Source: Bacilli bacterium | Lineage (GTDB): Bacteria > Bacillota_I > Bacilli_A > RFN20 > CAG-826 | DNA: 64,000 bases | Reading direction: 5' to 3' | NCBI GenBank assembly: GCA_049419605.1 | Contig: JBMSKF010000005.1 | Coordinates: 58 to 64,057 of the forward strand | Shown: positions 4,483 to 28,438 of the stretch, in pieces | How the letters are laid out: every line of letters starts with the position of its first letter | Numbering within the stretch: position 1 is the first letter of the stretch | Made by a program: the position numbers and the translations under genes | The notes under the pieces: model-generated | The model's database searches: none | What the model saw: the letters and a program-made list of their open reading frames with translations, nothing else | What the model was told of the DNA's origin: nothing

Positions 4483-4547
4483 CTAGCATCAACAATATAA
4501 GTAGGGAAAATTGTTCGCTATCTATCATCATGAAAGGAAATTTATTG

Positions 4548-7136
4548 ATGAAACATTATTGGAAAGGCCTATCCATTACGTTAGCAGCCCTCGTGTTAGC
4601 AGCGTGTGGAACCCCAAGTTCAAGTAGCCAAACGAGTTCCACAAGTACGAGTACTTTATCCTCGATTACGATTGCTGGAGCAAATGATGTTACCTTAGAA
4701 TTTGATGTCGATTTTAACTTTTTAACTGGCGTTACTGCTACTGGTAATAACGGCCAAGATTTTACATCGAGTATTACACTCTCTTCGATTTCTACCGCGG
4801 TTAATACTACAACGGGTGTTTTAGACACCACAAGAACTGGTGTTCATACCGTTCAATATCGTGTCCAATCTGGCACGATTGTTGCAACTAAATTTAGAAA
4901 TGTTACCGTTCAACAACCTCAATCCACAGGCGGTATGTTATTAAATCCAGACTTTGCTTTGGGTACTGCTGGTTGGACGGATCCAAGTGTTGTCTATAAC
5001 GAAAGTGGATCAAGTATTGACTTCGATATTGAAGATGGTGCATTAAAAGTAGTGGTTGTGGCAAGTCCTGTTGCCTATGCTCCACGCTTTGGACAAATGA
5101 ATGTACCCTTTGAAATCGACACCACATATGAAGTAAGCTTTAGAGCAAAATCCAGCGTAGTTAAACCCATTAACTTAAATGCTGGTGAATTATTATCCTC
5201 TGCTCCTTGGTTTGTTGACTTCAAACCTGGTCAACCAGAAATTAGAACGATTGGAACCGAATGGGCAACTTATTCCTATATCTTTACTCACCGTCTTGAT
5301 AACAAGCGTGGTGGTATTTTATTTGAATTAGGAACAGTCAGTGGTCAAAAAGTGGATGCCACGATGTACTTTGATGACATCACGATTGAAGAAGCAACTG
5401 CAGGTCCAGATGTGACCGCACCAAACTTCTCTGGTGTTTCTGCCACTGTCAGTGTTTTGGTGGGATCAACCTACGATCCATTAAATGGTGTCACCGCATT
5501 AGACATCGTTGATGGTGACTTAACGGATGAAATTTTAGTGGAAATTCTTGACAGCAATAACGCAGTCGTCAATGCCGTTGATACTTCTGTTCCTGCGGTG
5601 TACACAGTGAATTATTCTGTTGAAGACGCTGCAGGAAATGAAGCAACTGCCCAAACTATTGTCAATGTTGTAAGTTTAGTTTTCAAGAATGAAAACTTAT
5701 TGGCGAATGGTTCATTTGCAGAAGCGGTAGGAAATGAATGGAGTTTCTGGAGCCAAGATTGGGGTACAGCTCCTGTTGTGAATCGTTCGCAAAATGTTGA
5801 AGCTGGCACTTATACTTTAGACATCACCAATGGTGGTGATGCTGCTTGGGCGATTCAAATGAATCACGTCGGTGCTGAATTGGTTCAAGGTCAAACTTAC
5901 CGTTTATCATTCACAGGTTCCTCGACCGTTGCAAGAAAATTCTCAGCAGCGTTTGATACAGGGGCCCCAAACTATGATAACTATGCGCGTAAAAATGGAT
6001 TTGAATTAGGGACAACGAGTTCTACTGTTGATCACATTTTTACCGTAACCAAAGCTACTGGCATCATTCGTTTAACCATTGAATTTGGTTCACAAGATGG
6101 ATTTGCAAACGGTATCGTGACGTTATCTGAAGTTCGTTTACAACGATTAGATGCTTCTCCATTAATTAGTGATTCCAAATTTGCGATGTCTGGCTGGCGT
6201 CATTTCGTTAATGACTGGGATGGCACGGTTGCCACTTCCGGAATCGTCGCTGGCGAATATAAAATGACCATTACAAAGACTGTTGCCTTAAGTCCAACTG
6301 CAGATAATTGGAAATTACAAATTATCCAAGATAATGTTGCCTTCGGCGAAACTGTTGATGATGGTCGTATGAATTTAACAGCGGAAAAATCTTATACCTT
6401 AAGTTTTGACATGTATGCCTCACAAAACATTAATGTCACCACATTTATTGGTGCCCCTGGTGTTTGGGTTAACTATGTTCCAGAAGCAAACCGTGTCAAC
6501 GCAGTCACCACAAGTAAACAAACCATTACGATTCCTGTGAGTACGGTTGGGGCAACCTTAAATGGTAAGGAAAAAATTTCCTTTGAATTTGGTTCTTCCT
6601 TCTCGAACTTTGAATCCGGAAATGAATTTGTTGCGATTGATAATGTGGTCTTAAAAGAAGGTAACACCGTTTTACCAAACATCATTAACGGTGATATGAA
6701 CGCTATTTTAGGCGGACACACCTTCTTTACAGAAAATGGTGGTGCGATGACAAGAGGCGCCAATGGTGGTGCTTCTATTGAAGTTCCTGCTTTAGGCGGC
6801 GCTGCTTATCAACCTCATTATTACTATATTTTCCCAACGCTTGCCAAAGGTAAATATGAAGTGAAGATCGCATTAACCAGTTCGGTGACTCGTGATTTAC
6901 GCTTTAATATTATTCTTCCTGATGCGGGTTATGCTTCGATCCTTCCTGAAAACTTTGTTGATTTCCGCGTCACTGCAGATACCCCTTATGTCTTTACCGT
7001 TTCGTTCGAAGTGGTCAATCCATTAACGAATGTGAAACTTGAATTAGATCTAGGGACACTTGGTGGTGATAAGGTTTCCTTACCAGGAACTTTCTTAATT
7101 TCAGAAGTACTCGTCTACGCAAATTACAATAGCTAA
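4548..7136 (+). CDS. Surface lipoprotein with two Ig-like (DUF5011-type) modules and four CBM4/9/22-like beta-sandwich modules; glycan-binding protein
   Basis: Lipobox LAAC-GTPSSSS followed by a Ser/Thr linker. There are four roughly 155-aa repeats, each starting with a N(P/G)xF..GW-type motif and ending FDDITIEE / LSEVRLQ / IDNVVLKE / ISEVLVY. The DVTAP...DIVDGDLTD module is Ig-like. The ATG at 4548 has an AAAGGAAA RBS; the track start at 4530 does not. Confidence 0.65.
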   Translation: MKHYWKGLSITLAALVLAACGTPSSSSQTSSTSTSTLSSITIAGANDVTLEFDVDFNFLTGVTATGNNGQDFTSSITLSSISTAVNTTTGVLDTTRTGVHTVQYRVQSGTIVATKFRNVTVQQPQSTGGMLLNPDFALGTAGWTDPSVVYNESGSSIDFDIEDGALKVVVVASPVAYAPRFGQMNVPFEIDTTYEVSFRAKSSVVKPINLNAGELLSSAPWFVDFKPGQPEIRTIGTEWATYSYIFTHRLDNKRGGILFELGTVSGQKVDATMYFDDITIEEATAGPDVTAPNFSGVSATVSVLVGSTYDPLNGVTALDIVDGDLTDEILVEILDSNNAVVNAVDTSVPAVYTVNYSVEDAAGNEATAQTIVNVVSLVFKNENLLANGSFAEAVGNEWSFWSQDWGTAPVVNRSQNVEAGTYTLDITNGGDAAWAIQMNHVGAELVQGQTYRLSFTGSSTVARKFSAAFDTGAPNYDNYARKNGFELGTTSSTVDHIFTVTKATGIIRLTIEFGSQDGFANGIVTLSEVRLQRLDASPLISDSKFAMSGWRHFVNDWDGTVATSGIVAGEYKMTITKTVALSPTADNWKLQIIQDNVAFGETVDDGRMNLTAEKSYTLSFDMYASQNINVTTFIGAPGVWVNYVPEANRVNAVTTSKQTITIPVSTVGATLNGKEKISFEFGSSFSNFESGNEFVAIDNVVLKEGNTVLPNIINGDMNAILGGHTFFTENGGAMTRGANGGASIEVPALGGAAYQPHYYYIFPTLAKGKYEVKIALTSSVTRDLRFNIILPDAGYASILPENFVDFRVTADTPYVFTVSFEVVNPLTNVKLELDLGTLGGDKVSLPGTFLISEVLVYANYNS

Positions 7137-7151
7137 AGGAGGCTTAGGATA

Positions 7152-8612
7152 GTGAAACATAAAGCTAAACTATCCGTTGTAGCCTTGTTTGTCCTTGCTG
7201 GATGTGGGGGAACCCCATCCAGTAGTGGCAACACTACAACGAGTGAAACGTTACAACCTGTAACGTTGTCTTATGCAGATTGGGGTAATCAAGAACTCAA
7301 TCAACGCATGATTGATTTATTTGAAGCAAAGTATCCGCATATTACGGTCGAACTTCGACAAGATATTGTGGGTGCAGGTTCACAATTTACAGGCAACCTC
7401 GTCACTGCCGCTCAAGCTGGATTACTCCCTGACGTTTTTGCAACCGATAACGTCCCTACCGTTATCAATGCTGGTTTAACGTTGGATGTGGCTCAGTACT
7501 GGGATGCTGATGAAGATGCTCAGTTAGTCTATGACAATATTGCGCTTGCCGGAGTTTATAACGGCAAACGTTATGCCGTTCCGTCATTCCAATTCTTAAA
7601 AGGGATTTTAATTAATCTCAATATTTTTGAACGCGCCAACTTGCAAACCGTTCCAGGAAAGTATCGTATTGATAATGATGGGTATCCTGTAAAGGATTGG
7701 ACATTTGAAGAATTTGTGAATATTGCAAAAGACATTAAAAACTTTGATTTAGTGAATACCGAAAATTTAGTTGTTGGGATGGACACGTGGTATGGATCAC
7801 CTGATTTCCAACAAGTGTGGCCAATGATGCAAAATGCTGAAACCCAATACGATACATGGGATGGTGAACAATTTCATTACACCTCCGCAGATTGGATCAG
7901 TGCGATGCAAGCTAAAGTTGCCCTTCATCAATTAACCGATGGCACGACCACACGTTTTACACCAGAAGATTATGATGCCGAAGATAATGACGAATTAAGA
8001 ACGTATATGATTCAAACCGGTTATGCGGCGATGGACATTGAAGGTTCTTGGCAATTCTGGGTCATTAAAGATGCAATCGATAATCGTGATTTTGAATTAG
8101 GTTTCTGGCCTTATCCACAAGGTGATGCTGGATTATTCCCTCCTACCATTTTAGATTTCCAAGCCGTTTCATCTCAAACTGAGCATCCAGAAGAAGCTTA
8201 CTTACTAGCCAAATGGATGACATTTGGTCAAGATGGCTGGAATGCTCGTTTATCATTATTAGAAGAAGATCGTGAAGAAGCAATCGCGGAAGGGTTAACG
8301 CCTGATTTCTTAGACCGTTTCCCAATTGCGGATTATCCTGATGTTTGGACACGAGTCGAAGGCCTTGTAGAAGGAATTGAAGGGATCGATGCAATTTTTG
8401 ATCGTATTCAATATTCAAAACCAGACTTAGACAAATGGTTACCAGGTTATAAAGATTTCTGGGCATGGGTATACACGCCTGAAAATCCATTTAACTTTGA
8501 TAACTTAGTCGCCGAAGGACCCAATGCAGTGCCAACTTATGCAGCCGCATGGGAAGCACAAATTAATATGCTCGTAGCAGAACAACTTGCTGCCTTAGGT
8601 GCAAGTCAATAA
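7152..8612 (+). CDS. CUT1-type ABC sugar substrate-binding lipoprotein
   Basis: GTG start 9 nt after an AAGGAGG RBS. Lipobox LAGC-GGTPSSSG. At 486 aa it matches the size and composition of family-1 extracellular solute-binding proteins. Confidence 0.8.
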   Translation: MKHKAKLSVVALFVLAGCGGTPSSSGNTTTSETLQPVTLSYADWGNQELNQRMIDLFEAKYPHITVELRQDIVGAGSQFTGNLVTAAQAGLLPDVFATDNVPTVINAGLTLDVAQYWDADEDAQLVYDNIALAGVYNGKRYAVPSFQFLKGILINLNIFERANLQTVPGKYRIDNDGYPVKDWTFEEFVNIAKDIKNFDLVNTENLVVGMDTWYGSPDFQQVWPMMQNAETQYDTWDGEQFHYTSADWISAMQAKVALHQLTDGTTTRFTPEDYDAEDNDELRTYMIQTGYAAMDIEGSWQFWVIKDAIDNRDFELGFWPYPQGDAGLFPPTILDFQAVSSQTEHPEEAYLLAKWMTFGQDGWNARLSLLEEDREEAIAEGLTPDFLDRFPIADYPDVWTRVEGLVEGIEGIDAIFDRIQYSKPDLDKWLPGYKDFWAWVYTPENPFNFDNLVAEGPNAVPTYAAAWEAQINMLVAEQLAALGASQ

Positions 8613-8620
8613 TCACCACA

Positions 8621-8646
8621 GGGAGATTTCCTCACGGAAATCTCCC
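8621..8646 (+). promoter_or_regulatory. Perfect 11-bp intra-operon hairpin immediately after the SBP gene (attenuator or mRNA 3'-end stabiliser)
   Basis: GGGAGATTTCC-tcac-GGAAATCTCCC. The downstream sequence ttgattcg is only weakly T-rich. This is the only strong secondary structure within the 22-kb operon. Confidence 0.6.
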
Positions 8647-8658
8647 TTGATTCGATGC

Positions 8659-11600
8659 ATGAAAAAAACAAAATTAAACCTCCCTACATTGTTTACAAAA
8701 CAAACTGGCATTTGGCTAGTTATTTTGTTTATGGGTCTTACCGGTTTTGTTTTTTTGATGGATCAGTCACCCGCACCGTTGAATGAAAATTTTAACACCT
8801 ACCCTTTTATCCAACCCTCATTTGATTATGCTTATCAAACACAAGTTTATGGCATTCCAACTTATACTGCGAAACAAAATTTCTATCGAGAAGCAGGGGT
8901 TCCTCAAACGGGTTATGAGTCAAGTTACTTTGGAGATTCTCTCCAAGGAACTCCCATTGGAATTCTTGATGCAAACCATGGCAACATCGTAGAAAATTAT
9001 ACGGATGGAGATGAAGTATTTTTATTGGATCAAAGCGAAACCCTCTCTTTTGTTTATGACGGACAAGAGAGTGGAATTATCTCCTTAGCCTTAGATTATT
9101 ACTTACTTGATCAAGGCACTGAAGACACTAAAATTGCTTTAACCATTAATAATGAGTTTCAATTTTATGAATCGCAAACGTTGGTGCTTCCCGCTTCATG
9201 GATGTTTGCAGAAGATACCTTTCCTTTAGATCGTTATGAAAATGAATTACAACCTCAATCTATCAAAGTTAATGCATGGTCAAATCATGTATTAAGAGAT
9301 ATGAAAGCGATGCATGCTTATCCCTATCAATTTTATGTTGAATATGGTGATGAAATTACCCTCCAATTTGTTAATGCAAAGGTTTTAGTAGGCAAGATTC
9401 AAGTTGTGACAAGCGAACCTCTCATTGACTATGCAACTTACCGTGAAGGAAGTCCTCATGCACCCGTGATCGATACTCTATCCATGATTTCTAGTCGGTC
9501 GATGGTGTCGCGAACCGATGCCTCGATTCGTTTAAGAACCGAGCAAGATGCGAGTAGTATGTATTACGATACTCAATTCTTAAAACTCAATACGATTTTT
9601 GGTGATAGCTGGGAACGTGGTGGGCAAACCATTTCCTATGAAGTTGATATCGAAACCAGTGGATATTATGCTTTGTCTTTCCGTTACCGCCAATACTTAC
9701 AAAATGACATGGTGACGATGAGAAGTGTCTATATCAATGGAGAAGTCCCATTCCAAGAATTTTTAGCGATGGCGTTTCCTTATACGATGCAATTTAGAAA
9801 CCGGACCTTAGCCCAAGACAATGGGGATCCTTACTATGTTTATTTAGAAGAAGGCATCAATACAATCAGCCTTGAAGCGGTTAATTATGCCTATCGCTTT
9901 GCCTTAGAAACCCTGCAAACCATCATGTCTCAAATTCAACAACTCGCACTCTCTATCAAACGATATACAGCAGGGAGTAATGATTTATACCGTGATTGGG
10001 AAATCGAAACGTATTTTCCTCAAGCAAAAAATCAAATGCTTGGTTGGGCTGATCAACTCGATGCCATGTATACACATTTATTAAATTTATCCATTAATCG
10101 TAATCCTTCTCAACTTGCCAATGTCAAAGTGAGTAGTGCAAGATTAAGAACTTTTGCGAATCAAATTAATCGCTTACCAGGATTAATGGTGCAATTTGCC
10201 GATGGTGATTCTAGTGTCAATCAAATGCTGGGCGCATTGCTACAAGAAATGATGCGATCTTCTTTAGAAATCGAACGTATCATGATTCATGGTGATGTTA
10301 GTTTGCCACGATCCACTGCCACCTTCTTCCGTAGTGCTTACGAAGGCAGCGCTCGATTGGTTCTTTCTTTTATTAATAATCCATATTCAGCAACACAAAT
10401 GGATGAAGAACAAATTAACGTTTGGGTTAACTTCCCAAGACCCTATATCGAAATCATGCAGGCGATGATTGATCAATTTTATCCCGGTGACCGCGAAGTC
10501 AAACTTTCGCAAATGCCTGATGAAAATAAATTAATTCTTTCTAATATCTCTGGTCAATCTCCAGATGTTGCGGTCGGTGTAAATCACTGGATTCCTTATG
10601 ATTTTGCTGCACGTGATGCCGCGATGGATTTAAGACAGTTTGATGGGTATACCGAAACGGTTTCTCAATTTTCTAAAGGGGCAATGATCCCTTACGTCTT
10701 TGAAGAAGGGGTGTATGGTTTACCTTTAACGCAAAATTTCTGGGTCACATTTTATCGTCGCGACATTATGGAATCGATTGGTGTCAATACCATTCCTCAA
10801 ACATGGGATGAAATTATTGGTATTTTACCTTTATTACAAAGTTATGGGCTAAATTACTTCTTACCCCTTTCGCAATTTTCAGGTTTAAAACCATTTGTTG
10901 CAACATTACCCTTTATCCATCAATTTGGTGGACAACTTTATGCAGAAGACGGCATGAGTACGACAATCAATGAAGAAAATACTTTAAAAGGGATCACCTT
11001 AATGGCGGAACTTTTTACCCTCTATAATATCCCCAAATTCGTCGCAAGTTTTTATAATCAATTCCGATATGGAACGTTGCCGATTGGCATTGGAGATTTA
11101 GGAACGTATTTACTATTATCAAGTGCTGCAAGTGAATTAGACGGATTATGGGCAATGGATTTACATCCCGGATATCAAGACCCCGTGACTCAAGAGATCA
11201 ATCGTTCGAGCGCGACTGGTGCTCAAGGGTCGATGATTTTGGCAAATACCAATATTCCTGAAGATAGTTGGGATTTCTTGTCTTGGTGGATGTCGACACC
11301 TATTCAAACTTTATTTGGTTCCACGCTTCAAAGTACCTATGGCAAAACCTATTTCTGGAACTCTGCTAACTTAGAGGCTTTTGCTGAATCAAGTATGCCT
11401 GAAGAATATAAGTCAGTTGTTTTAGCGCAATGGGAATATGCTTTAGAAGCTAGTCGGATTCCTGGCACTTATATGGTGGAACGAGAATTATCCAATGCTT
11501 GGACCAATATTGTCTTTCAAGGAATCAATCCACGCCAAGCGATTGATGAAGCAGTGAGAATTTCTAATCGGGAAATTATTTATAAGATGGCCGAATTCGG

Positions 11601-11685
11601 TTACACCTTCCAAGGTGAAATTTTACGACCGTATCCTGTGCCGACGATTGATAATATAGATTGGTGGTTGACTCAACATGCTTAA
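8659..11685 (+). CDS. TM-anchored giant extracellular protein: N-terminal TM, CBM-like beta-sandwich regions, a helical region and a C-terminal family-1 solute-binding-protein domain
   Basis: The ATG at 8659 ([12 protein letters not shown]...) lies after the hairpin. TM segment [22 protein letters not shown]6/35-like pattern is present ([12 protein letters not shown]...VYINGE...INTISLEA). From about nt 10411 the protein becomes SBP-like ([22 protein letters not shown]...PDVAVGV...). The stop overlaps the next permease start by 8 nt. Confidence 0.6.
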
Positions 11686-12574
11686 TCGATTATTAGATCG
11701 GATGAATCGCCCTGCTTGGTTTATTTTCCCTTATTGGTTTTTGTTTGCAGTCTTCATTGTGGTACCTGTTGTCGCTGCAATTGGATTATCCTTCACGTTC
11801 TTTAATTCCATACAAACTCCAACCTTTATTGGCATTACAAACTATATTGAATTAATTACTTTAGACACTGTCTTTATGCGATACGTATTACCCAACACCT
11901 TGCGTTTTGCATTTATTGTGGGACCAGTTGGGTATGCATTGTCCTTTATGGTTGCATGGATGTTATCCCACTTACCGAAAAGACCAAGAACGATTTTAGC
12001 AATCATCTTTTATTCACCTTCTTTAACTGCAGGGGTTGCTATGGCAGCGATGTGGCGCATTATCTTTTCTGGAGATGCTCAAGGTTACTTGAATGCGATT
12101 ATGTTGGATTTAGGTTTGATTGTAGAACCGATTCAATTTTTACAAAATCCTGATATGCTCATGACCATTATGATTGTGGTGTCATTATGGAGTTCCATCG
12201 GGGTTGGTTTCTTAGCCATGCTTGCCGGGATTTTAAACGTTGATCGTACACTATATGAAGCGGCTTATATTGATGGCATCAAAAATTGGTTCCAAGAAAT
12301 TATTTATGTCACCATCCCAGCGATGAAGCCACAAATGATTTTTGGTGCAGTCATGGCTGTCGTGGGTACTTTCCAAGCAGGTGCAATTGGTGTTGCTTTG
12401 TCGGGAACCAATCCTACGCCAAATTATGCCGGTCAATTGATTGTAAATCACATTGAAGACTTTGGTTTCATTCGTTACATGATGGGTTACGCGGCGAGTA
12501 TTTCCGTCATTCTATTGTTGATGGTGTATGCGATTTCTAAGGTAACGTGGAAGTTTTTAGGAGAAAAAGATTAA
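11678..12574 (+). CDS. ABC sugar transporter permease (MalF/LplB-type)
   Basis: 298 aa with six predicted TM segments. An EAA-like loop is present ([27 protein letters not shown]). Confidence 0.85.
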
Positions 12575-13452
12575 TGGCCTCAAAATTTTTAGGAACACAA
12601 ATTAATCCGGACCGTTTCCATAAAGGACAACTTCCTTTTTTCATTATTCTCATTTCATTTTCTGTCTTGATGATCTTACCGATTTTATTTATCATCAATC
12701 ACGCCTTTAAACCACAGTCAGAACTCTTTGCCTATCCTCCTGCATTTTTTGTAAAAAATCCAACCCTTGATAACTTTATTGAACTCGCTAGACTTGTTTC
12801 AACATCAGGCGTTCCTTTTTCTCGTTATGTTTTAAATAGTTTGTTCATCACGGGTATCGGCGTTGGCTTGGCAATTTTATTTACCGCTTTATCCGCTTAT
12901 GGTTTAGCCAAATTGCATTTTAAAGGAAAGAAATTATTATTTGAAATCAATACGATTTCTTTAATGTTTGTGCCAATCGCGGTGCAAATTCCTCGTTATA
13001 TTGTGGTGGCCCAATCAGGAATGATTGATACCTATTTCGCTCATATTTTCCCGCTAATTACCATGCCTGTCGCTATGTTTTTAATCAAACAATTCATCGA
13101 TCAAATTCCTAATGATTTTATTGAAGCCGCGCGTATTGATGGGGCTAGTGAGATGCAAATATTCTTTAAAGTCATCATGCCGATGATTGCTCCAGCAGTT
13201 GCCACTGTTGGTATTCTTGCTTTCCAATTAATTTGGAATGATACCTCCACTTCAACCTTATTTATTAATGACGAAAGTTTAAGAACGTTAGCATTTTTCT
13301 TACAAACTTTAACTTCAGGAGTTGGTAATACCATTGCTGGACAAGGAATGGCGGCTGCGGCATCGTTATTAATGTTTATTCCTAATTTAGTCTTGTTTGT
13401 CATCTTACAAAGTCAAGTGATGTCCACGATGGCGCACTCGGGGTTGAAGTAA
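12574..13452 (+). CDS. ABC sugar transporter permease (MalG/LplC-type)
   Basis: EAA loop FIEAARIDGASEMQIFFKVIMPMIAP. The ATG at 12574 is preceded by GGAGAAAAAG; the track's GVG-type extension from 12547 overlaps the upstream gene. Confidence 0.85.
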   Translation: MASKFLGTQINPDRFHKGQLPFFIILISFSVLMILPILFIINHAFKPQSELFAYPPAFFVKNPTLDNFIELARLVSTSGVPFSRYVLNSLFITGIGVGLAILFTALSAYGLAKLHFKGKKLLFEINTISLMFVPIAVQIPRYIVVAQSGMIDTYFAHIFPLITMPVAMFLIKQFIDQIPNDFIEAARIDGASEMQIFFKVIMPMIAPAVATVGILAFQLIWNDTSTSTLFINDESLRTLAFFLQTLTSGVGNTIAGQGMAAAASLLMFIPNLVLFVILQSQVMSTMAHSGLK

Positions 13453-13453
13453 T

Positions 13454-15496
13454 ATGAAACGCTGGTTATATCTAGTTCTTTTTGCAAACTTAGGTTTGTT
13501 ATTACCGCAAAGAACGGTAGTACCCACGCTTGCAGATAATGGATTGCCCTATCAAACTTACACTTATGCAAGTTCACGGCAACAACTTATCCAAACCCAA
13601 GATGCATATTTACCGTTATCTCTTGCAACGCAACTTGGTGATTTCACCCTATCATCACCCCAAGATGTTTACGTGGATTCACAAGATATTATCTATGTTG
13701 CTGATAAAGGTAGAAAATCCATCATCAAATATAATTTGCAAAATGATGAAGCGATTGAAATTGGTTTAGGTATACTCAACGAACCAACAGGTGTCCATGT
13801 TGATGAATTAGGTTCGATTTATGTGGCAGACTTTGCCAATAAAAAAGCTTATCAGTTCATCAATGATGACGGGGAATATAGGGTACAAACCGAGTATCAA
13901 AAACCTCTTAATTCACCTTTCTTTGGTGAAGAAGATCCCTTTGATCCTACCAAAGTTGTCACCGATCGAGGCGGCAACGTCTATGTTTTACTTGCCGGTA
14001 ACGTGAACGGTCTTGCTCAGTTTAAAAATAATGGTGAATTCTTTGGTTATTTCGGTGGCAATCGAATTCCAGCCACAATTGCAAACACCATTCGTTCGCT
14101 ATTGTTTGATGAAGAAACAAGACGTAACTTTTTCCAAATCATTCCTAAGCCTGTTTATAACCTTAGTATTGATCAAAGTGGTTTAATTTTAACCTCTACC
14201 AAAGACCAAGATGGATACTTAAAACTCAACATTGCTAACGTCATCTATAATCAATCGGTTTGGGGTTTTAATACAGTTGAAGATATTGCGGTTGGTCCGT
14301 ATAACACGATTTATACGTTAACCTCTGAAGGTTATATCGTTGAGTATGATCCTAATGGTTCCGTGCTATTTTTATTTTCAGGTCCGGACGCCATTGGGCA
14401 AAAAGGATTATTTAAACGAGCCAAAGGGATCGCGATTGATTCCCGAAATAATTTATATGCAGTTGATGAAGCAACTGGCGCACTCCAAATTTTTATTCCA
14501 ACCGAATTTGCAAATTTAGTTCATGATGCTATCGATTTATACTTTGATGGAAAATATGCCGAATCTTTGGTCCCTTGGCAAAACGTCTTAAAAATGAATC
14601 GGCTTTTTGACCTTGCAAATCAAGGATTGGGTGACGCTTATTTTGCTTTACAAGATTATGAATCTGCCTTAACTTACTATCGATTAGCGAGAGATACTAG
14701 AGGTTATTCCAATGCTTACTGGGAAGTTCGAAACCAATTCCTGTTAGTCAATGGCAATGCTTTCGTCGTTTTCTTAATGATACTTATCGCTTTCTATGTG
14801 GTTCGCAAATTCATTCCTGGCTATGTTTGGGTGCAAACGCAAATCCATAATTTAAAACAAAAAACCACGCTTCCTAATTGGATTAAAGAACTCCAATTTC
14901 CTTTCCAAGTGTTTGCCAAACCGGTTGATGGATATGATGATATCAAACGTCATCAAACCTTTAGCAACCGCAGTGCGCTTATTTATTTAATCGCATTCTT
15001 TGTCGCGTATTTAATTTGGATATACGAAACCAACTTTTTATTTAACGGTTTAATCTCTTCTGAAATTAATATAGTTGAACAAGTGATTGGTGTCTTTGTT
15101 CCATTTGGTTTGTGGGTTGTTAGTAACTACTTAGTTTGTTCCATACGAGATGGCGATGGTAAATTATCGGAAGTATTTCAAGCATCAGCCTTAACATTAT
15201 TGCCAATGATTATCACCTTCCCAATTCTGACGATCATTTCGCATGGGTTAACGGCAAATGAAAGCTTTATTTATGATTTGATATATGGCATTGGTGTGAG
15301 CTTTACCGTGATATATATGTTTATCATGGTGAAAGAAATTCATTTCTATGACATCAAACCGACGTTTAAAAACATTCTCATCACGATCTTTACTGCCATT
15401 ATGTTACTTGCTTTAACCTTAATTATTGTCTTCTTGCTTGGAGAAGTTTATCAATTGATCGCCGATATCATTCAGGAGGTGAATAGCCGTGTTTAA
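13454..15496 (+). CDS. Fusion membrane protein: signal peptide, NHL-like beta-propeller, TPR-like helices, then a polytopic Yip1-like domain
   Basis: Repeated blades occur at aa ~60-350: IYVADKGRKSIIKY, IYVADFANKKAYQF, VYVLLAGNVNGLAQF, LYAVDEATGALQIF. A TPR-like stretch GDAYFALQDYESALTYYRLA follows. A TM sits at aa ~428-450, then five more TM segments in a Yip1-like region (FQVFAKPVDGYDDIKRH...). Confidence 0.6.
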   Translation: MKRWLYLVLFANLGLLLPQRTVVPTLADNGLPYQTYTYASSRQQLIQTQDAYLPLSLATQLGDFTLSSPQDVYVDSQDIIYVADKGRKSIIKYNLQNDEAIEIGLGILNEPTGVHVDELGSIYVADFANKKAYQFINDDGEYRVQTEYQKPLNSPFFGEEDPFDPTKVVTDRGGNVYVLLAGNVNGLAQFKNNGEFFGYFGGNRIPATIANTIRSLLFDEETRRNFFQIIPKPVYNLSIDQSGLILTSTKDQDGYLKLNIANVIYNQSVWGFNTVEDIAVGPYNTIYTLTSEGYIVEYDPNGSVLFLFSGPDAIGQKGLFKRAKGIAIDSRNNLYAVDEATGALQIFIPTEFANLVHDAIDLYFDGKYAESLVPWQNVLKMNRLFDLANQGLGDAYFALQDYESALTYYRLARDTRGYSNAYWEVRNQFLLVNGNAFVVFLMILIAFYVVRKFIPGYVWVQTQIHNLKQKTTLPNWIKELQFPFQVFAKPVDGYDDIKRHQTFSNRSALIYLIAFFVAYLIWIYETNFLFNGLISSEINIVEQVIGVFVPFGLWVVSNYLVCSIRDGDGKLSEVFQASALTLLPMIITFPILTIISHGLTANESFIYDLIYGIGVSFTVIYMFIMVKEIHFYDIKPTFKNILITIFTAIMLLALTLIIVFLLGEVYQLIADIIQEVNSRV

Positions 15497-17855
15497 ACTT
15501 TCACGATTCATCATTCCGATGATTGTATTACCCGTATTAATTGTGACAACCCAAGAGGATCCAACATTAATGGTTGCTCCTCGTGTTGATAATTTTGCTT
15601 TTATTGAAAACCAATTATTGAGTAGTTCAAGATACACGCAAGTAGATGAACAAAATGCGGCTGTTTTAAACCGTTTCGAAGATGACTTTCACTTACAATA
15701 TAGCGAAGAACAACTTGATATTCTTGGTTATGAGTTAATGTTAGAAAATAACAACCTTAATCTTTATTTTGAAAAAGATTCTTTTTCATTGTTGCTTGAG
15801 GATAAGGCAACTGGTTATATGTTATCTTCGCGTCCAGAATTCCAAGGGTATTCTGAAACCAGAGAAGATAACACAGCGAATCGTAATCAAATGAATTCAG
15901 GTTTATGGATTGAATCAATCCGAACCAATAATATTAGTAGCAGTGCAATTAAAGTAGAATCGTTGTACACCATTGCAGATGTAAGTTATCAAACGAATGG
16001 TTCGCAGGATTTAACCAACATTGATTGGACAAGACCTTATTTAATTGAGGCGAATAGTTATCAACGTAGTCGAGTACAAGTCACCACTTCATCTATTAAT
16101 GAAACAAGTTTTAAATCCACGATTCAGATTACAAACTATGGTTTTAGTTTTGACATCACCATTGGCTTAGAATCGAATGGATTTTCTGTTCGTTTTAATC
16201 CAACAACTATCCAAGAAAATAATGATCAATATCGCTTACTTGGATTACAATTTTTCCCATATTTTGGTTCTGCTCGTGAGGATATTTATCCCGGTTATGT
16301 TGTCATTCCAGATGGCGTTGGTGCATTAGTCAGAACCAATCAACGTTTTGATAAAACCTATCAATCTGATTATTATGGTTCAGATTTAGGTTATCTAAGA
16401 AACTCGGTTGCCTCGTTATCCCTTCCTATTTATGGCATGATTCATCAAGTCAATCGTATTGGTTTTTATCATGACATAGTTGAGGGTGCAGAACATGCAA
16501 CCTTATTAGCGAATTTCTGGGGTAGAAACACTCGTTATCATCGCATCACAAATCGATATAACGTTCGACGTATTTATCGAAATATCATTAATCGTGCTGG
16601 TGATGGTCAAGATGTTATTCCTACAGAAATGATTACGCAACCTTATGAAGGGGTTTACCGTATTTTAAAAGAAGACCAAGCTAATTACGTTGGCGTGGCA
16701 AAATCTTATCAAAATGAATTAGCAACTCGGCAAGCTATTCAAGCATTAGAAAACACAGAAACACCGATTCAACTTGCCATGCTAATTCACGAACAAGAAC
16801 CTACTTTTTTTGGCACATCACGATTAACCATGACTTCAATGGATGATGTTCAACGCATGCGAGATGAACTCAATGAACAAGGTATTGATGAGCAGCTTAT
16901 CGTCTTAAAAGGATGGTCTGGCGATGGGTATGCTTACCGCCAACCATACTATTTTAATTTACCCGATCGTCAAGGATTATTAGATGTGATTGCAGACGTC
17001 AACGAAGATGGCCAGCATCTATTCCTTGAACAGGACTATCTTGTGAGTAGTGAACTTTCTCGCCGAGTTGAATTTAATCGCGATGTCGCACGAAATTACT
17101 CTAAATTAAAAATGAGTTATCGTCTCAATCGCTTGGATAATCAACCGATTAATGAGTATTATCTTTACCCAACCATCGCTCAAGAAAAACTAGCAAATGA
17201 TATCGCAGTGATAGATGACTTAGGGGCAAGCGGATTTGCATTCCCTCATCTTGGTCAAACCTTATTTAGCTATTATGATGATCAACGAATCAACCGTTCT
17301 GAAACTTTACAAATTGTGACCGATATGGCTGCATCATTAAACCGCTCAGCGATGAATCGGCCATCTGCCTACATGTTCCCGTATGTCAGTCATTATTTAG
17401 AAATGCCAATCACAAATAGTCAGCTGGATTTATTTACTGACTTAGTGCCACTTGTTCCTTATGTGTTAAAAGGGTATGTGCCCACCTTCACACCTTATTT
17501 AAACTTTAATGCTTTAGGAAAAGAACGACTACTCCAAATGATTGATTTTGCAGTGAATCCAAGTTATTTATTAACCGATCAACCAAGTAGCGCGCTTCGT
17601 TATACTTATAGCAATAAATACTTCACCACCGCTTATAGTGATTTCAAAGATGACATCCAAGATGTGTATCAATATATTGCAACTGCATTAAATCCGGTGT
17701 TGGGAACTACGGTCGCTGAACGAACGATGGTACAAACCGGGGTTAGTCGCATTGTCTATGATAATGGCGTCACCTTATATATTAATTACCGTTCTACACC
17801 TGTTACCGTTGATCAACTGACGATTGCGGCATTAGACTATGAGGTTGTGTTATGA
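15489..17855 (+). CDS. N-terminally TM-anchored 788-aa extracytoplasmic protein, DUF5696-like (function unknown; possible glycoside-hydrolase-like fold)
   Basis: GTG start 7 nt after an AGGAGGTG RBS, overlapping the upstream stop by 8 nt. It has a single N-terminal TM (FIIPMIVLPVLIVTT). Motifs GYVVIPDGVGALV and LKGWSGDGY are present. I recognise no named catalytic signature. Confidence 0.4.
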   Translation: MFKLSRFIIPMIVLPVLIVTTQEDPTLMVAPRVDNFAFIENQLLSSSRYTQVDEQNAAVLNRFEDDFHLQYSEEQLDILGYELMLENNNLNLYFEKDSFSLLLEDKATGYMLSSRPEFQGYSETREDNTANRNQMNSGLWIESIRTNNISSSAIKVESLYTIADVSYQTNGSQDLTNIDWTRPYLIEANSYQRSRVQVTTSSINETSFKSTIQITNYGFSFDITIGLESNGFSVRFNPTTIQENNDQYRLLGLQFFPYFGSAREDIYPGYVVIPDGVGALVRTNQRFDKTYQSDYYGSDLGYLRNSVASLSLPIYGMIHQVNRIGFYHDIVEGAEHATLLANFWGRNTRYHRITNRYNVRRIYRNIINRAGDGQDVIPTEMITQPYEGVYRILKEDQANYVGVAKSYQNELATRQAIQALENTETPIQLAMLIHEQEPTFFGTSRLTMTSMDDVQRMRDELNEQGIDEQLIVLKGWSGDGYAYRQPYYFNLPDRQGLLDVIADVNEDGQHLFLEQDYLVSSELSRRVEFNRDVARNYSKLKMSYRLNRLDNQPINEYYLYPTIAQEKLANDIAVIDDLGASGFAFPHLGQTLFSYYDDQRINRSETLQIVTDMAASLNRSAMNRPSAYMFPYVSHYLEMPITNSQLDLFTDLVPLVPYVLKGYVPTFTPYLNFNALGKERLLQMIDFAVNPSYLLTDQPSSALRYTYSNKYFTTAYSDFKDDIQDVYQYIATALNPVLGTTVAERTMVQTGVSRIVYDNGVTLYINYRSTPVTVDQLTIAALDYEVVL

Positions 17856-18919
17856 AGACAAAAAGACCTTCTATTTTTAAACAATTCTTAACGCGTCTTT
17901 TGAATTTGATGGAATCAATGAGTCAATTTTACCAAGCTAAGATTCAACCTCCCTTAGACCGTTTTGTTTATCGCTTAAAACATAATTTTATTTATCGAGA
18001 AATCGGTAATACAGTGAAAATATTTTCCTTAATCACCATTCGTATTACAAGAAAACGTCGGCATGCATTTTATGGCTATCTATTTATTTTGATATGGTTA
18101 ATTGGGATTGCGATTTTTACCTTATATCCCTTAGGATATTCATTTTATTTAAGTTTTCATGAAGCCTATTACAACTTACAAGAAGGCGTTATTACCACAT
18201 TCATCGGCTTCACGAATTATGTCAACATATTCAGAAGTCAAACCCTTGTGCCTGCTTATAGCAATTATTTAGGAAGAATGGTGGTTGCGGTTCCCATCAT
18301 CATTGTCTTTTCAATCATCATTGCCGTCCTCGTCAATATGCCAATCAAGACCAAAAGTTTGTGGCGAACTGTTTTCTTTTTACCGGTGATTATTTCAACG
18401 GGTCCTGTCATCAATGAATTGAATGCTCAAAGTGCGATTACTTTACCCAATTTACAGGCGAGCGGAATCTATAGTTATATCGTCAATAATTTACCAAGCT
18501 TTTTAGCAGATCCTTTAACCACTGTCATTAATTCCATGCTTTTAATCCTATGGTATGCAGGGATTCCTATCCTCATTTATTTAGCAGGATTACAAAAAAT
18601 TGATCCGAGTTTATATGAAGCCGCCAGTATGGATGGCGCCTCACCTTGGATGCGTTTTTGGAAAATTACCTTACCATCATTAATGCCGTTTACCGGTATT
18701 TCCATTGTCTATGTTGTGGTATCGATGTCCTTATTTGTTGAACCAGGTGGCATATTAGATTTAACAAGGACCCACATGTTAGTGGGGGCTCCTGATTCTG
18801 CATTCTGGTTTGGATATGGATATGCAGCAGCGATGGCGTGGGTATATTTCATTTGTATGGTCTTATTGATTCTAGTTTTTACAAGTCTTACCCGAGAAAA
18901 AAGAGGTAAAGTAAAATGA
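17852..18919 (+). CDS. ABC sugar transporter permease with a long N-terminal extension (LplB-like)
   Basis: ATGA start/stop overlap with the upstream gene. EAA loop LYEAASMDGASPWMRFWKITLPSLMP. 355 aa. Confidence 0.85.
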   Translation: MKTKRPSIFKQFLTRLLNLMESMSQFYQAKIQPPLDRFVYRLKHNFIYREIGNTVKIFSLITIRITRKRRHAFYGYLFILIWLIGIAIFTLYPLGYSFYLSFHEAYYNLQEGVITTFIGFTNYVNIFRSQTLVPAYSNYLGRMVVAVPIIIVFSIIIAVLVNMPIKTKSLWRTVFFLPVIISTGPVINELNAQSAITLPNLQASGIYSYIVNNLPSFLADPLTTVINSMLLILWYAGIPILIYLAGLQKIDPSLYEAASMDGASPWMRFWKITLPSLMPFTGISIVYVVVSMSLFVEPGGILDLTRTHMLVGAPDSAFWFGYGYAAAMAWVYFICMVLLILVFTSLTREKRGKVK

Positions 18920-19854
18920 AACTTTCCTCACTCATTTCAGTCTCCCAACAACAAAAAATGAAAAAAGTTTGGTTAGGAAAAACCTTAACTGATGGTTTGC
19001 TATACAAGGTTGTGATTTATTTATTGTTGATTAGTTTTAGTTATATTTATTTATATCCTCTGTTATTTATGTTGATCAACAGTTTAAAATCTGTTGATGA
19101 TTTGATTAATCCTGGTGTGCAATGGATTCCCACCGTCTTAAAGTGGGAAAACTATGAACGCGCCTTTCAAGTTTTAAGTTTGCCAAACTCGTTGATTGAT
19201 TCAACCGTCTATGTTTTAAAGGTCAGTGTCAGTGCGACTTTATCGAGTGCTTTAATTGGTTATGGTTTTGCTCGATTTGATTTCCCTTTTAAACGCTTAT
19301 TCTTTGCAATTATGTTAGCGACCTTTATTCTCCCTCAACAAGTGACCATGGTTGCGAATATGCTTATCTTTAGAGAATTAGAAATCATTTCAACTGAATG
19401 GGCGATGCTGTTACCAGCGATGACAGGGCAAGGTATCAATGCTGCAATTTACATTTTGATTTTTTACACATTCTATCGAACGATTCCAGGCATCCTCATT
19501 GAATCTGCAGAAGTGGATGGGGCTGGTCAATTAAGAATTTTCCGAACCATCATCCTGCCTTTAGCGATACCTTCTTTTGTCATCGTTTTCTTATTTAGTT
19601 TTGTTTGGTATTGGAATGAATCCTTTATTACCGGCTTATATGTAGGTGATAAGGTGACCTTGCCTTTATGGTTACAAGCTTTTAGAGCTTCGTATGAAAC
19701 AATTTTCCCACCTGGTACACCCGGAGCAGAACTAAATGAAGCCATTTTACTTTCAGGAAATATGTTGACGATATTACCTTTACTTTTACTGTATTTCTTT
19801 GGTCAAAAATTATTTACGCAAAGTATCGATAAAACGGGAATCACTGGAGAATAG
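18916..19854 (+). CDS. ABC sugar transporter permease (LplC-like)
   Basis: ATGA overlap with the upstream gene. EAA loop ESAEVDGAGQLRIFRTIILPLAIP. 312 aa. Confidence 0.85.
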   Translation: MKLSSLISVSQQQKMKKVWLGKTLTDGLLYKVVIYLLLISFSYIYLYPLLFMLINSLKSVDDLINPGVQWIPTVLKWENYERAFQVLSLPNSLIDSTVYVLKVSVSATLSSALIGYGFARFDFPFKRLFFAIMLATFILPQQVTMVANMLIFRELEIISTEWAMLLPAMTGQGINAAIYILIFYTFYRTIPGILIESAEVDGAGQLRIFRTIILPLAIPSFVIVFLFSFVWYWNESFITGLYVGDKVTLPLWLQAFRASYETIFPPGTPGAELNEAILLSGNMLTILPLLLLYFFGQKLFTQSIDKTGITGE

Positions 19855-19855
19855 T

Positions 19856-21007
19856 ATGAAAAAAATATGGCCTTTAACATTCTTAATCGTGACCGTCACG
19901 TCTTGTGTCAATCCAAGTGTAAGCTCATCCTCATCAAGTGGTGTTCCTAATGGAAGGTTACCATTAACCCCTGTGGAAGGTTGTGGAGTACAAACGATTG
20001 ATAACCAATGGGTATGTACATGGACTGATGAATTTAATGGAGATGATCTAAATTCTGATCATTGGAATATTGAAGTGAATGGCGATGGTGGTGGTAACCA
20101 AGAAGCTCAATACTACCGCAGTGAAAATATCTCAGTCAGTGATGGCACTTTAAAAATTACAGCTAAAAAAGAAAATTATTTAGGGAAGCAATATACCAGT
20201 GGTCGAATTAATTCCCGTTATAAAGTGAATCCTCAATTTGGTCGAGTAACGTTTCGCGCCAAAATGCCTGCAGGAAGAGGAACTTGGGCAGCAGTATGGA
20301 TGTTACCGTTGTTCAATCGCTTTGGACAATGGCCTAATAGTGGTGAAATCGATATCTTAGAATATGTCGGTTATGACCCAGGCACCGTTTTTTCGGCAAC
20401 GCATACGACTAAATTCAATCATACAAAAAATAACAATCCCAGTGCCTCTAGAGTATTAGTCGATCCTGAAAATCAATTCTATGAATATGAAATGATTTGG
20501 TTACCAGGAGAAATTAGGATGTTTGTGGAAGGCAATCCTTATGGTACCTATCGATATGTTCCACAATTTAATCAAGACGTCCCTTATGATGATGTATTTC
20601 CATTTCAAGAAGAATTTTATTTCATCATTAATCTTGCGGTTGGTGGTAGTTGGGGTGGAGTTCAAGGCATTGATCCGCTTGCCTTTCCTACTGTATTTGA
20701 AATCGATTATTTACGCATATATGAATGGGATTATGCCAATCATGATCTCACACCACCTGAAAAACCAACAGCCCTCGCAACTTCGCAACTCGAGAATACC
20801 ATTCATTGGAATCGCCCAAATGATGACACATGGGTTAGCCATTACGCGATTTATTTAGATGGTGTGAAATATCGCGAAGCAAAAATTAATCAATTTACAT
20901 TCGTTGGACTTGAAGAACGGAGTTACCAAGTTCAAGTTGAAGCGATTGATTTTGTTGGTAGAACTTCACCCTTATCCGATGCTATTACCTTTAACTTTGG
21001 AGGGTAA
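19856..21007 (+). CDS. Surface lipoprotein GH16 endo-beta-1,3-glucanase (laminarinase) with a C-terminal FN3-like domain
   Basis: The ATG at 19856 follows a GGAGAA RBS. Lipobox VTSC plus a poly-Ser linker. GH16 catalytic motif WPNSGEIDILE. The C-terminal roughly 90 aa (PPEKPTALATSQLENTIHWNRP...YQVQVEAID) is FN3-like. Confidence 0.85.
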   Translation: MKKIWPLTFLIVTVTSCVNPSVSSSSSSGVPNGRLPLTPVEGCGVQTIDNQWVCTWTDEFNGDDLNSDHWNIEVNGDGGGNQEAQYYRSENISVSDGTLKITAKKENYLGKQYTSGRINSRYKVNPQFGRVTFRAKMPAGRGTWAAVWMLPLFNRFGQWPNSGEIDILEYVGYDPGTVFSATHTTKFNHTKNNNPSASRVLVDPENQFYEYEMIWLPGEIRMFVEGNPYGTYRYVPQFNQDVPYDDVFPFQEEFYFIINLAVGGSWGGVQGIDPLAFPTVFEIDYLRIYEWDYANHDLTPPEKPTALATSQLENTIHWNRPNDDTWVSHYAIYLDGVKYREAKINQFTFVGLEERSYQVQVEAIDFVGRTSPLSDAITFNFGG

Positions 21008-21011
21008 ACTC

Positions 21012-21728
21012 ATGCTCAAACCACATCAAAAACTTGTCTTTAAAGAAACGTTTCAATCTTTGAATCGTGATGTTTGGAATTTAGAAGTAGGTGAAAAATG
21101 GTTTAACGATGAACGACAATGTTATGTGGATTCACCCAAAAACCTCCAGATCACTCCACAGGGCTTACGAATTATTGCCGATATCAATCCTGCTGAAAAA
21201 AAGTGTCGATATCAATCCATTCGTTTAAATACAAAAGATAAAAAAGAATGGCAGTATGGAACGTTTATTGCTCGCGCCAAACTTCCTCATGGAAAAGGTT
21301 CCTGGCCCGCAATTTGGTTATTAGGTCACGATATTGGAACTGTAAAGTGGCCATTGTGTGGTGAGATTGACTTATTAGAAATGGTGGGACATGATCCAGA
21401 AGTTTTACATTTTAGTTTGCATTCACAGTTACATAATCACATTATTAAAACGCAACGGACGAAGTTTCAAAAAATTCCTGGCATCATGGAAGGTTTTCAT
21501 GATTATAAAATGATTTGGCGTCCCGAAGGCATTAGTTTTTTTATTGATGATATTCATTATGTAACCTTTGAGAAGAAACCAAATGATCCAATTGAAAGTT
21601 GGCCTTTTGACAAACCCTATTATCTGCTCATTAATATTGCGGTTGGAGGTACTTGGGGTGGAAAAATTGAAGAACAAGACATGCCATATGTGATGGATGT
21701 TGAAAAAATTGAGGTGTATCAAGAATGA
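21012..21728 (+). CDS. Cytosolic GH16 beta-glucanase paralog
   Basis: The ATG at 21012 lies 8 nt after a GGAGGG RBS. There is no signal peptide. GH16 motif WPLCGEIDLLE is present, and the domain ends INIAVGGTWGG. Confidence 0.8.
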   Translation: MLKPHQKLVFKETFQSLNRDVWNLEVGEKWFNDERQCYVDSPKNLQITPQGLRIIADINPAEKKCRYQSIRLNTKDKKEWQYGTFIARAKLPHGKGSWPAIWLLGHDIGTVKWPLCGEIDLLEMVGHDPEVLHFSLHSQLHNHIIKTQRTKFQKIPGIMEGFHDYKMIWRPEGISFFIDDIHYVTFEKKPNDPIESWPFDKPYYLLINIAVGGTWGGKIEEQDMPYVMDVEKIEVYQE

Positions 21729-27764: not shown

Positions 27765-28438
27765 AGCAAACATTACTCGCCTCTAAACATCTTCTTTTCC
27801 TCTATGTGACAGGTGTTTTGACTGCCTCATTAGGCGTGTTTTTGATGAAATCTAGTACTTTAGGTTTAGGACCTTGGGGTGTTGCAGCTTATGAACTTAA
27901 TGCTTTATTGAATCCAATTCTTGGCTTCTTTACTTTTGGTGCCGCCTCCACCGTTCATACATACACAATGATTTTATTTATCTTACTCATTAATAAAAAT
28001 TTAAAATCAGCATTTGTGTTTGTTTCTGTATTATTAACGAACGGTATGGTGGATTTTTATGACTATATTTTATTTCCACAATGGGTGATTAACAATTTAG
28101 AATCTGCAATCTTGAGTCATGGGGTTGGTTTTCTTGTGTATTGTTTGGGATCCGCATTATTAATTCTTTCAACATTCCCCGGCATGGTGATTGAAGAATT
28201 TACTTTTGCCATCATGAAATTATTTAAGATCAAAAACTATCCATTGATGCGCACGATTGTTGCATATTTTGGTTTTGTTTTAGCGTTGATTTACGGTCTA
28301 TTGTCTGGCACGAATGCAAGTTCGATCACTTGGTTATCGTTTGTCCTTGGTGTTGCCTTTGGACCAGTGATTCAAAAAATCGTCAAAACGATTCGCCAAT
28401 CAAAATTAGGAATTCACCTTAAGACTAAACAAGCTTAA
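27761..28438 (+). CDS. YczE/YitT-like integral membrane protein (paralog 2)
   Basis: ATGA overlap with paralog 1. SLGVFLMKSSTLGLGPWGV motif. Its architecture matches the upstream gene. Confidence 0.6.
   Translation: MKQTLLASKHLLFLYVTGVLTASLGVFLMKSSTLGLGPWGVAAYELNALLNPILGFFTFGAASTVHTYTMILFILLINKNLKSAFVFVSVLLTNGMVDFYDYILFPQWVINNLESAILSHGVGFLVYCLGSALLILSTFPGMVIEEFTFAIMKLFKIKNYPLMRTIVAYFGFVLALIYGLLSGTNASSITWLSFVLGVAFGPVIQKIVKTIRQSKLGIHLKTKQA

Follow-up and report, generated by a model that had tools for sequence, protein, structure and literature searches.

Much of the breakdown of plant, algal and dietary glycans is the work of Gram-positive bacteria, and sugar uptake in these organisms is usually drawn as one solute-binding protein (SBP) that works with one permease pair. 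The closest described systems are the CUT1 importers, such as MalEFGK2, UgpABCE and MsmEFGK, which combine MalF/MalG-type BPD_transp_1 permeases carrying EAA motifs with a family-1 SBP and with an ATPase of the shared MsmX/MsiK type. Here we describe a cassette of seven genes that has the same kind of permeases, motifs and SBP, encoded in a 64,000-nucleotide stretch of DNA from a Bacilli bacterium (assembly GCA_049419605.1, contig JBMSKF010000005.1, positions 58 to 64,057 of the forward strand; hereafter the window). Its ATPase is either presumably unlinked, as in the window, or of the MalK type and encoded directly upstream, as in Paenibacillus and Neobacillus. Unlike the described CUT1 systems, the cassette holds two paralogous permease pairs in a fixed unit, a transmembrane-anchored receptor of about 1000 amino acids that joins carbohydrate-binding modules (CBM), a helical region and an SBP domain, and two obligatory partners, an NHL-Yip1 protein and a DUF5696 protein, for which those systems have no counterpart.

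Three other kinds of systems invite comparison. Previous work has shown that the Yip1-family protein YknW is an assembly factor of the ABC transporter YknXYZ in Bacillus (PMC4887032). YknWXYZ and the cassette both have a polytopic Yip1-family membrane protein encoded with an ABC transporter, a likeness that consists in Pfam family membership, but YknXYZ is a MacB-type exporter and YknW lacks an NHL/TPR ectodomain. The DUF5696 protein shares a three-domain fold and profile homology with glycoside hydrolase (GH) families GH129, represented by the 3,6-anhydro-D-galactosidase ZgGH129 and the alpha-N-acetylgalactosaminidase NagBb, and GH101. It differs from them in its low identity (11-14%), in matching no Pfam GH family, in not conserving the equivalent of D486, in its transmembrane anchor and in being found always within a transporter cassette. 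Sus-like and Gram-positive polysaccharide utilisation loci (PULs) combine surface glycan binding and cleavage, import, cytoplasmic breakdown and a regulator, as the window locus does; unlike in Sus, import is assigned to ABC channels of the cytoplasmic membrane, and the cassette moves between loci with different carbohydrate-active enzymes (CAZymes). A scan of the 20 products encoded between 634 and 30573 found neither a SusC-type TonB-dependent transporter nor a SusD-like partner, and the resemblance to a Sus-like PUL is functional only.

A full-text literature search retrieved no papers that deal with DUF5696 or with these genes in combination, and nothing relevant on "YIP1 family protein" with ABC transporters or on Yip1 with NHL and permease, in agreement with the original prediction, made from the sequence of the window, that no Yip1-fusion or DUF5696-like component is known to have been characterised in bacteria; the description of Peloplasma is without glycan or transporter data. 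In public annotation the parts appear as "extracellular solute-binding protein", "YIP1 family protein" and "DUF5696 domain-containing protein". By its fixed pair of translocons, its CBM-SBP fusion receptor and its two obligatory extra proteins, the cassette differs from every described CUT1 importer and PUL. Nothing here yet points to a mechanism other than that of an ABC importer. The explanation that we favour, and hold to be probable, is that of a single cassette in which two paralogous CUT1-type import channels work with three membrane-held extracytoplasmic partners.

Gene order of the cassette and its distribution

According to the list of open reading frames (ORFs), an uninterrupted run of + strand genes (1450-24068) holds the cassette at 8659-19854. 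The seven genes are:

8659-11685, + strand: giant receptor, 1008 amino acids; the ORF is open from 8599, with an ATG at 8659
11678-12574, + strand: permease 1a (perm1a), 298 amino acids, with a MalF/UgpA-like CUT1 transmembrane domain
12574-13452, + strand: permease 1b (perm1b), MalG/UgpE-like, with ATG 12574 and an alternative GTG start at 12547
13454-15496, + strand: NHL-TPR-Yip1 protein, 680 amino acids
15489-17855, + strand: DUF5696 protein, 788 amino acids, GTG start
17852-18919, + strand: permease 2a (perm2a), 355 amino acids, with a CUT1 transmembrane domain
18916-19854, + strand: permease 2b (perm2b), 312 amino acids, with a MalG/GlcU-like transmembrane domain

Overlaps of 8 nucleotides join the giant gene to perm1a (11678-11685) and the NHL-TPR-Yip1 gene to the DUF5696 gene (15489-15496), and ATGA overlaps of 4 nucleotides join the DUF5696 gene to perm2a (at 17852) and perm2a to perm2b (at 18916). 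A single nucleotide (13453) separates perm1b from the NHL-TPR-Yip1 gene and, provided that perm1b starts at ATG 12574, perm1a and perm1b overlap by 1 nucleotide (TAATG). The ORF list and the inspection of junctions confirmed the original prediction of seven consecutive, coupled genes, with large proteins of exactly the predicted sizes. Its overlaps and gap were also right, except that the perm1a/perm1b junction, described as an adjacent stop and start, is the 1-nucleotide overlap just mentioned. The coupled run had been taken to end at 19854, but tight packing extends further, with the ATG of a GH16 lipoprotein gene at 19856, 1 nucleotide beyond the perm2b stop. A scan for promoters and terminators within the cassette gave matches at chance level only and no internal transcription signals.

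A genome scan with subfamily-specific peptide patterns returned 63 loci, all of them from Acholeplasmatales, namely Acholeplasmatales-like metagenome-assembled genomes (MAGs) and the cultured Peloplasma aerotolerans; the cassette is kept in about 50 of such loci. The order CBM4/Ig lipoprotein, SBP, giant, two permeases, NHL-Yip1, DUF5696, two permeases and GH16 was found in all Acholeplasmatales loci of sufficient length, among which the identity of the DUF5696 proteins goes down to 35%. The records of four loci (L006, L008, L032 and L060) are titled "Staphylococcus epidermidis", "Staphylococcus sp." or "Staphylococcaceae", labels that look wrong for a locus of the Acholeplasmatales type.

Further carriers were located by tblastn on plasmids and by contig look-ups, and the seven-gene core was found in the same order in all ten loci sampled outside Acholeplasmatales:

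L064: Paenibacillus cellulosilyticus, ugpC-type ATPase gene upstream
L065: Butyrivibrio fibrisolvens, preceded by GH43 and followed by two ordinary SBPs, with NHL and Yip1 as separate genes (9189-11284)
L066: Neobacillus kokaensis, with a MalK ATPase, GH2 and GH38
L067 and L070: uncultured MAG assemblies, with GH30_2 and GH35
L068: Cohnella luojiensis, with GH26, GH113 and GH9
L069 and L071: metagenome contigs, the cassette being present as far as the contig reaches
L072 and L073: Paenibacillus hamazuiensis, which has two copies, both with a MalK ATPase; no GH lies within 10 kb in L073

The three large genes thus stay together with the permeases in every locus of sufficient length, as the original prediction had expected, and no partial cassettes were seen among the sampled loci except those cut by contig ends. 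The giant/perm1a, Yip1/DUF5696 and DUF5696/perm2a overlaps recur in Paenibacillus and Neobacillus. Such an arrangement, with an identical order in every sufficiently long locus, is far beyond chance. The link to beta-glucan, which had been regarded as a trait of the cassette, does not extend to these hosts, where it stands beside GH26/GH113/GH9, GH35/GH30_2, GH43, GH2/GH38 or no GH at all. The DUF5696 family as a whole comprises 4474 clusters at 50% identity (E <= 1e-3).

By BLASTP, each permease was 31-58% identical to its counterpart in another class and 21-29% identical to its paralogue in the same locus, which places the divergence of the two pairs before that of the classes. For perm1a, identity to the permeases of Butyrivibrio and Paenibacillus was 43-58% for the first-pair "a" protein and 25-27% for the second pair, and perm1b was 42-52% identical to its orthologues in other classes; the corresponding values for the second pair were 31-36% (perm2a) and 32-35% (perm2b). 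The cassette is probably an ancient, portable or mobile unit of Bacillota, placed in differing sugar-utilisation loci; it is not an invention of Mollicutes.

Upstream of the giant gene, the spacer that separates it from an ordinary SBP lipoprotein gene carries the following element:

8620-8647, + strand: 12-bp GC-rich hairpin, dG -22 kcal/mol, z -5.5

The start of the module had been placed at 8621, which is not a start codon and lies inside this hairpin, the true ATG being located 38 nucleotides further on. GC-rich stems of 10-13 bp were found in the same spacer in 41 of 41 related loci (among L001-L061). Their sequences vary between loci (GGGAGAUUUCC, GGAAGACCUC, AGAGGGGA, CAAGAGGGCA and others) while the place remains the same, so that the structure is conserved without the sequence. 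The hairpin is probably an intra-operon mRNA stabiliser or a partial terminator, through which more SBP would be made than cassette protein.

Receptor, permeases and NHL-TPR-Yip1 protein

Hydropathy analysis revealed a single N-terminal transmembrane segment in the giant (residues 11-34). In its AlphaFold2 (AF2) model, searched with Foldseek, two CBM6/35-like beta-sandwiches (about residues 85-250 and 274-408) are followed by a helical bundle (about 410-532) and by a family-1 sugar SBP domain (about 537-1008). The sandwiches matched the CBM35/CBM6 modules 2w1w, 2w47, 2vzp and 8j3x, with TM-scores (target) of 0.65-0.69 for the best chains of the first three, and were predicted with a per-residue confidence (pLDDT) mostly of 80-94, with dips to ~54 near residue 195 and to about 75-78 at the edges. 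The giant of the window has no Pfam CBM match; weak CBM_35 matches were obtained for 6 of 13 members of its family (best 3e-4), and the family profile matched the CBM35 region of CITase at 6e-6. Residues 580-990 matched Lin1841 in the PDB at 3.9e-11 with the single sequence and at 1.8e-32 with the family profile, and by this homology the C-terminus is a complete family-1 SBP. Hydropathy, the AF2/Foldseek comparison and the Lin1841 profile match all back the original description of a transmembrane-anchored fusion of CBM-like and SBP domains. Its rank as a second receptor had to be revised, given that an ordinary SBP of ~450-500 amino acids is missing from four (L064, L067, L070 and L073) of the nine loci outside Acholeplasmatales that span the whole cassette. 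Only the giant is present as a receptor in every cassette, and the 486-amino acid SBP encoded upstream in the window is an accessory, non-universal partner.

All four permeases were assigned to BPD_transp_1 by Pfam (perm1a 2e-8, perm1b 1e-16, perm2a 3e-9 and perm2b 5e-11), and EAA motifs, IESAEVDG among them, were read in their translations. Further similarities were to UgpA/GlcT for perm1a, to UgpE (3e-28) for perm1b and to GlcU (4e-25) for perm2b, and perm2a carries an N-terminal extension of ~65 amino acids. No MalK-type ATPase gene was found across the whole 64-kb window, and the ATPase that serves the window cassette is assumed to be shared and unlinked; in L064, L066, L072 and L073, the gene immediately before that of the giant encodes an ATPase of the MalK/UgpC type. 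At 59488-60995, the window contains two adjoining ABC ATPase genes with 29-31% identity to MalK/UgpC over the nucleotide-binding domain only, which look like an energy-coupling factor (ECF)-type pair and not like the missing sugar-importer ATPase. A role in export or in exopolysaccharide assembly was also considered and rejected, in view of the type I importer transmembrane domains, the SBP partner and the LacI-regulated catabolic contexts.

The 680-amino acid protein consists of a signal peptide, an extracytoplasmic NHL beta-propeller (about residues 30-350), a TPR region (about 355-425) and a C-terminal part with six transmembrane segments by hydropathy, the first at residues 429-447. The propeller was matched by Pfam NHL (7e-15) and by the sensor domain of PknD (1rwi, 4.7e-15), an NHL six-bladed propeller that is attached to a kinase in PknD and to a Yip1 domain here; six stretches matched the seven-blade design Pizza7H. 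Pfam PF04893 placed the Yip1 domain at residues 484-656 (2.8e-7, 31.0 bits versus a cut-off of 28.6, model positions 1-172 of 173), a region with five hydrophobic segments between residues 503 and 659. With these matches and a weak Pfam signal for TPR, the NHL-TPR-Yip1 fusion of the original prediction was borne out. NHL and Yip1 are fused as one gene in the window, Paenibacillus and Neobacillus. Of the ten loci sampled outside Acholeplasmatales, six (L065 and L067-L071) encode NHL(-TPR) and Yip1 by two genes that overlap; these loci come from Butyrivibrio, Cohnella and four uncultured sources (two MAG assemblies and two metagenome contigs). Such a fusion/fission pair, of the Rosetta-stone kind, links the two parts to each other.

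The DUF5696 protein and competing explanations

The third large protein, originally called DUF5696-like, is a bona fide member of this family (PF18952, 2e-123, 413.5 bits versus a cut-off of 25.6, model positions 7-612 of 612). Its predicted layout comprises an N-terminal transmembrane anchor, a beta-sandwich, a (beta/alpha)8 barrel and a small C-terminal beta-sandwich. The AF2 model (pLDDT 73.6, predicted TM-score 0.77) matched GH129 over its full length (5opq at 5e-27, TM-score 0.56/0.66, and NagBb 5wzn at 2.7e-22), followed by GH101, GH36 and GH31 at 1e-12 to 1e-15 (Foldseek). Searches of the PDB with the single sequence or with a narrow profile found nothing, and a relaxed Pfam scan of 40 members gave zero matches to GH families, even weak ones. 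Because a profile of 40 diverse members detected ZgGH129 (1.6e-11) and NagBb (4.9e-9), DUF5696 is a remote homologue of GH129/GH101-type glycosidases, more than a look-alike. No catalytic signature could be named in the original prediction; the homology now relates the protein to glycosidases, although it may or may not be catalytically competent.

Across 151 diverse members, several acidic residues are near-invariant and all of them are kept in the window protein, namely E243 (94%), D275 (97%), D299 (88%), E/D435 (89%), D/E651 (92%) and D/E686 (99%); N672 (100%) and R603 (91%) are also conserved. Between classes, DUF5696 proteins are only 22-24% identical (BLASTP). The position of D486 in ZgGH129 was located by comparing 8rzk (D486N) with 8rzg (wild type), which differ by one residue in the alignment, and the alignment to ZgGH129 leaves the acid/base region uncovered. 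A pseudo-enzyme specific to the clade of the window (GFAF versus G(I/V)DF in Paenibacillus and Butyrivibrio) was considered and rejected, as this column is variable throughout the family.

Within the cassette, the part played by DUF5696 admits several explanations. It may be an active, membrane-anchored glycosidase that would found a new GH family near GH129/GH101 and turn the cassette into a capture-cleave-import machine, an explanation that we take seriously while giving it somewhat less than even chances; the addition that the enzyme would have co-diversified with its substrate has a similar standing. The full-length fold match to GH129, GH101, GH36 and GH31, the profile homology to two characterised GH129 enzymes and the near-invariant residues at barrel positions (the acidic E/D435, D/E651 and D/E686, and also D275 and N672) speak for it. 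Catalytic pairs of GH101 and GH129 lie ~30-45 residues apart, and D651 and D/E686 are 35 residues apart. The fast divergence between classes would be expected of a substrate-facing part, and no further GH is encoded near some of the Paenibacillus cassettes. The same protein may instead be a catalytically dead relic of a glycosidase that serves as a glycan-binding receptor or structural lid of the second permease pair, which we consider rather unlikely. Its gene lies always directly upstream of perm2a, often translationally coupled to it, and four complete cassettes (L064, L067, L070 and L073) have one SBP domain for two permease pairs. Against this, acidic barrel residues that are almost invariant are more typical of an enzyme, both permease pairs could be served by the giant, and a type I ABC importer with a receptor other than an SBP would, to our knowledge, be without precedent. 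More doubtful still is a supercomplex in which the Yip1 scaffold would join the two ABC translocons and DUF5696 would dock on the second as a substrate-delivery partner replacing the classical SBP.

Several observations weigh against the favoured explanation or against a glycosidase within it. ZgGH129 D486 aligns to Q590 of the window protein, in a column that is never acidic in the 151 members (the alignment is remote and could be shifted), and in the "strand + Asp" column close by, 100 of 151 members have an acidic residue and the window protein and its clade have Pro586. The lack of any Pfam GH match speaks against the enzyme. A nucleophile position that is not conserved fits the relic better than the enzyme, and so does the position of DUF5696, which is the same in mannan, galactan, beta-glucan and GH43 loci and hence independent of the substrate of the locus. 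The barrel and active-site loops of the AF2 model of DUF5696 are poorly predicted, and the SBP part of the giant model is of low confidence. The cassette adjoins chemically unrelated CAZyme sets, and none in L073, so that a substrate-specific enzymatic role of DUF5696 is not obvious. Finally, the neighbours in L064 (16126-25349) and L072 (1-636 and 18016-20723) are luciferase-like flavin monooxygenases, aldo/keto reductases and extra SBPs, without GHs, and some cassettes may therefore have a non-glycan substrate.

Two explanations concern the cassette as a whole. According to the original prediction, it would be a Sus-like surface machine evolved for wall-less cells in which only the membrane is available for anchoring. 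The window does come from an Acholeplasmatales-like MAG, and its three large proteins are all transmembrane-anchored, but a gene-for-gene orthologous cassette with the same anchors is found in the walled Paenibacillus, Cohnella, Neobacillus and Butyrivibrio, the DUF5696 family has the 4474 clusters given above, and identities of 22-58% argue against recent transfer from Mollicutes; the distribution contradicts this origin, which we regard as very unlikely. Alternatively, two unrelated ABC importers might simply flank two unrelated membrane proteins without forming a functional unit. What favours it is that any interaction of the parts is as yet a prediction. The invariant order over three classes, the conserved translational coupling, the NHL/Yip1 fusion and fission, and the lack of partial cassettes among the sampled loci make a chance assembly scarcely credible.

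The beta-1,3-glucan operon and the proposed working of the cassette

In the window, the cassette is surrounded by the following features:

1166-1193: terminator, upstream of the GH161 gene
1450-4482, + strand: first gene of the operon, cytoplasmic GH161 beta-1,3-glucan phosphorylase (PDB 9qqk "GH161A" and 9h8v, ~5e-196 over the full length)
4530-7136, + strand: surface lipoprotein with CBM4_9 (CBM_4_9, 4.6e-21) and Ig-like (Bact_surface_Ig-like, 1.4e-11) domains, lipobox LAAC
7152-8612, + strand: ordinary SBP lipoprotein, 486 amino acids (PDB 22hh, 4e-21), lipobox LAGC
19856-24068, + strand: GH16 lipoprotein, second GH16, GH30 and LacI (GH16 8e-20 and 1e-21, GH30 3e-73, LacI/Peripla_BP_3)

The PDB entry 9h8v was deposited as "Cellobiose phosphorylase", and NCBIfam sees the 1450-4482 product weakly, as GH149-like. 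The GH16 lipoprotein (19856-21007, lipobox VTSC) is followed in tandem by the second GH16 (about 21012-21728); the TTG starts of the longest ORFs of the two GH16 genes (19799 and 20904) are probably too far upstream. Neither the second GH16 nor GH30 has a signal peptide or, by hydropathy, any transmembrane segment. GH161, two GH16, GH30, the ABC cassette and LacI lie on one strand between 1450 and 24068, as in a Gram-positive PUL. Since GH161, the CBM4/Ig lipoprotein, the two GH16, GH30 and LacI surround the cassette, the neighbouring genes point to beta-1,3-glucan as its substrate in the window, and the beta-glucan operon of the original prediction was recovered. Beyond the operon, a 712-amino acid Beta_propel (PF09826) protein is encoded on the - strand (28435-30573), and a zinc-dependent phospholipase C-like protein and an Atg22-like transporter of the major facilitator superfamily are encoded at 26073-27080 and 24731-26068.

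The analysis establishes the structure of the genes, the identity of the domains, the orthology and synteny between classes and the descent of DUF5696 from glycosidases. From the gene arrangement and the domain content we infer a physical complex, an assignment of receptors to channels, a scaffold role for Yip1, a substrate and, possibly, catalysis by DUF5696. The conserved coupling of the giant to perm1a, and of Yip1 to DUF5696 and perm2a, suggests two sub-assemblies within the cassette. At the cell surface, the GH16 and CBM4/Ig lipoproteins would bind beta-1,3-glucan and cleave it, and the giant would capture oligosaccharides through its CBM35-like modules and SBP domain and pass them to the first permease pair, its translationally coupled partner. 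The GH129-like barrel of DUF5696, anchored beside the second pair and coupled to it, would trim glycan, or merely hold it, for delivery to that pair, with the 486-amino acid SBP lipoprotein assisting as an optional extra receptor. Like YknW, the NHL-TPR-Yip1 protein would bring the parts together, as a scaffold in the membrane, and an unlinked ATPase of the MalK/MsmX type would power both channels. In the cytoplasm, the imported oligosaccharides would be broken down by the GH161 phosphorylase, the second GH16 and GH30. Of the surface capture and import complex originally proposed, the seven genes as one conserved unit stood; that the proteins form a complex and pass their substrate on to two importers is plausible.

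The fixed seven-gene unit spans rumen Butyrivibrio, soil Paenibacillus and wall-less freshwater Acholeplasmatales. If its parts work together, it would represent a new architecture of ABC sugar import, and DUF5696 and a bacterial NHL-Yip1 protein would each gain a first function; a GH family or a class of transporter receptors could be new with it. If DUF5696 does dock on the second translocon, thousands of Bacillota lineages would share an ABC import route in which a protein of glycosidase fold delivers the substrate. A cassette of this kind would also allow better annotation of many polysaccharide-utilisation loci.

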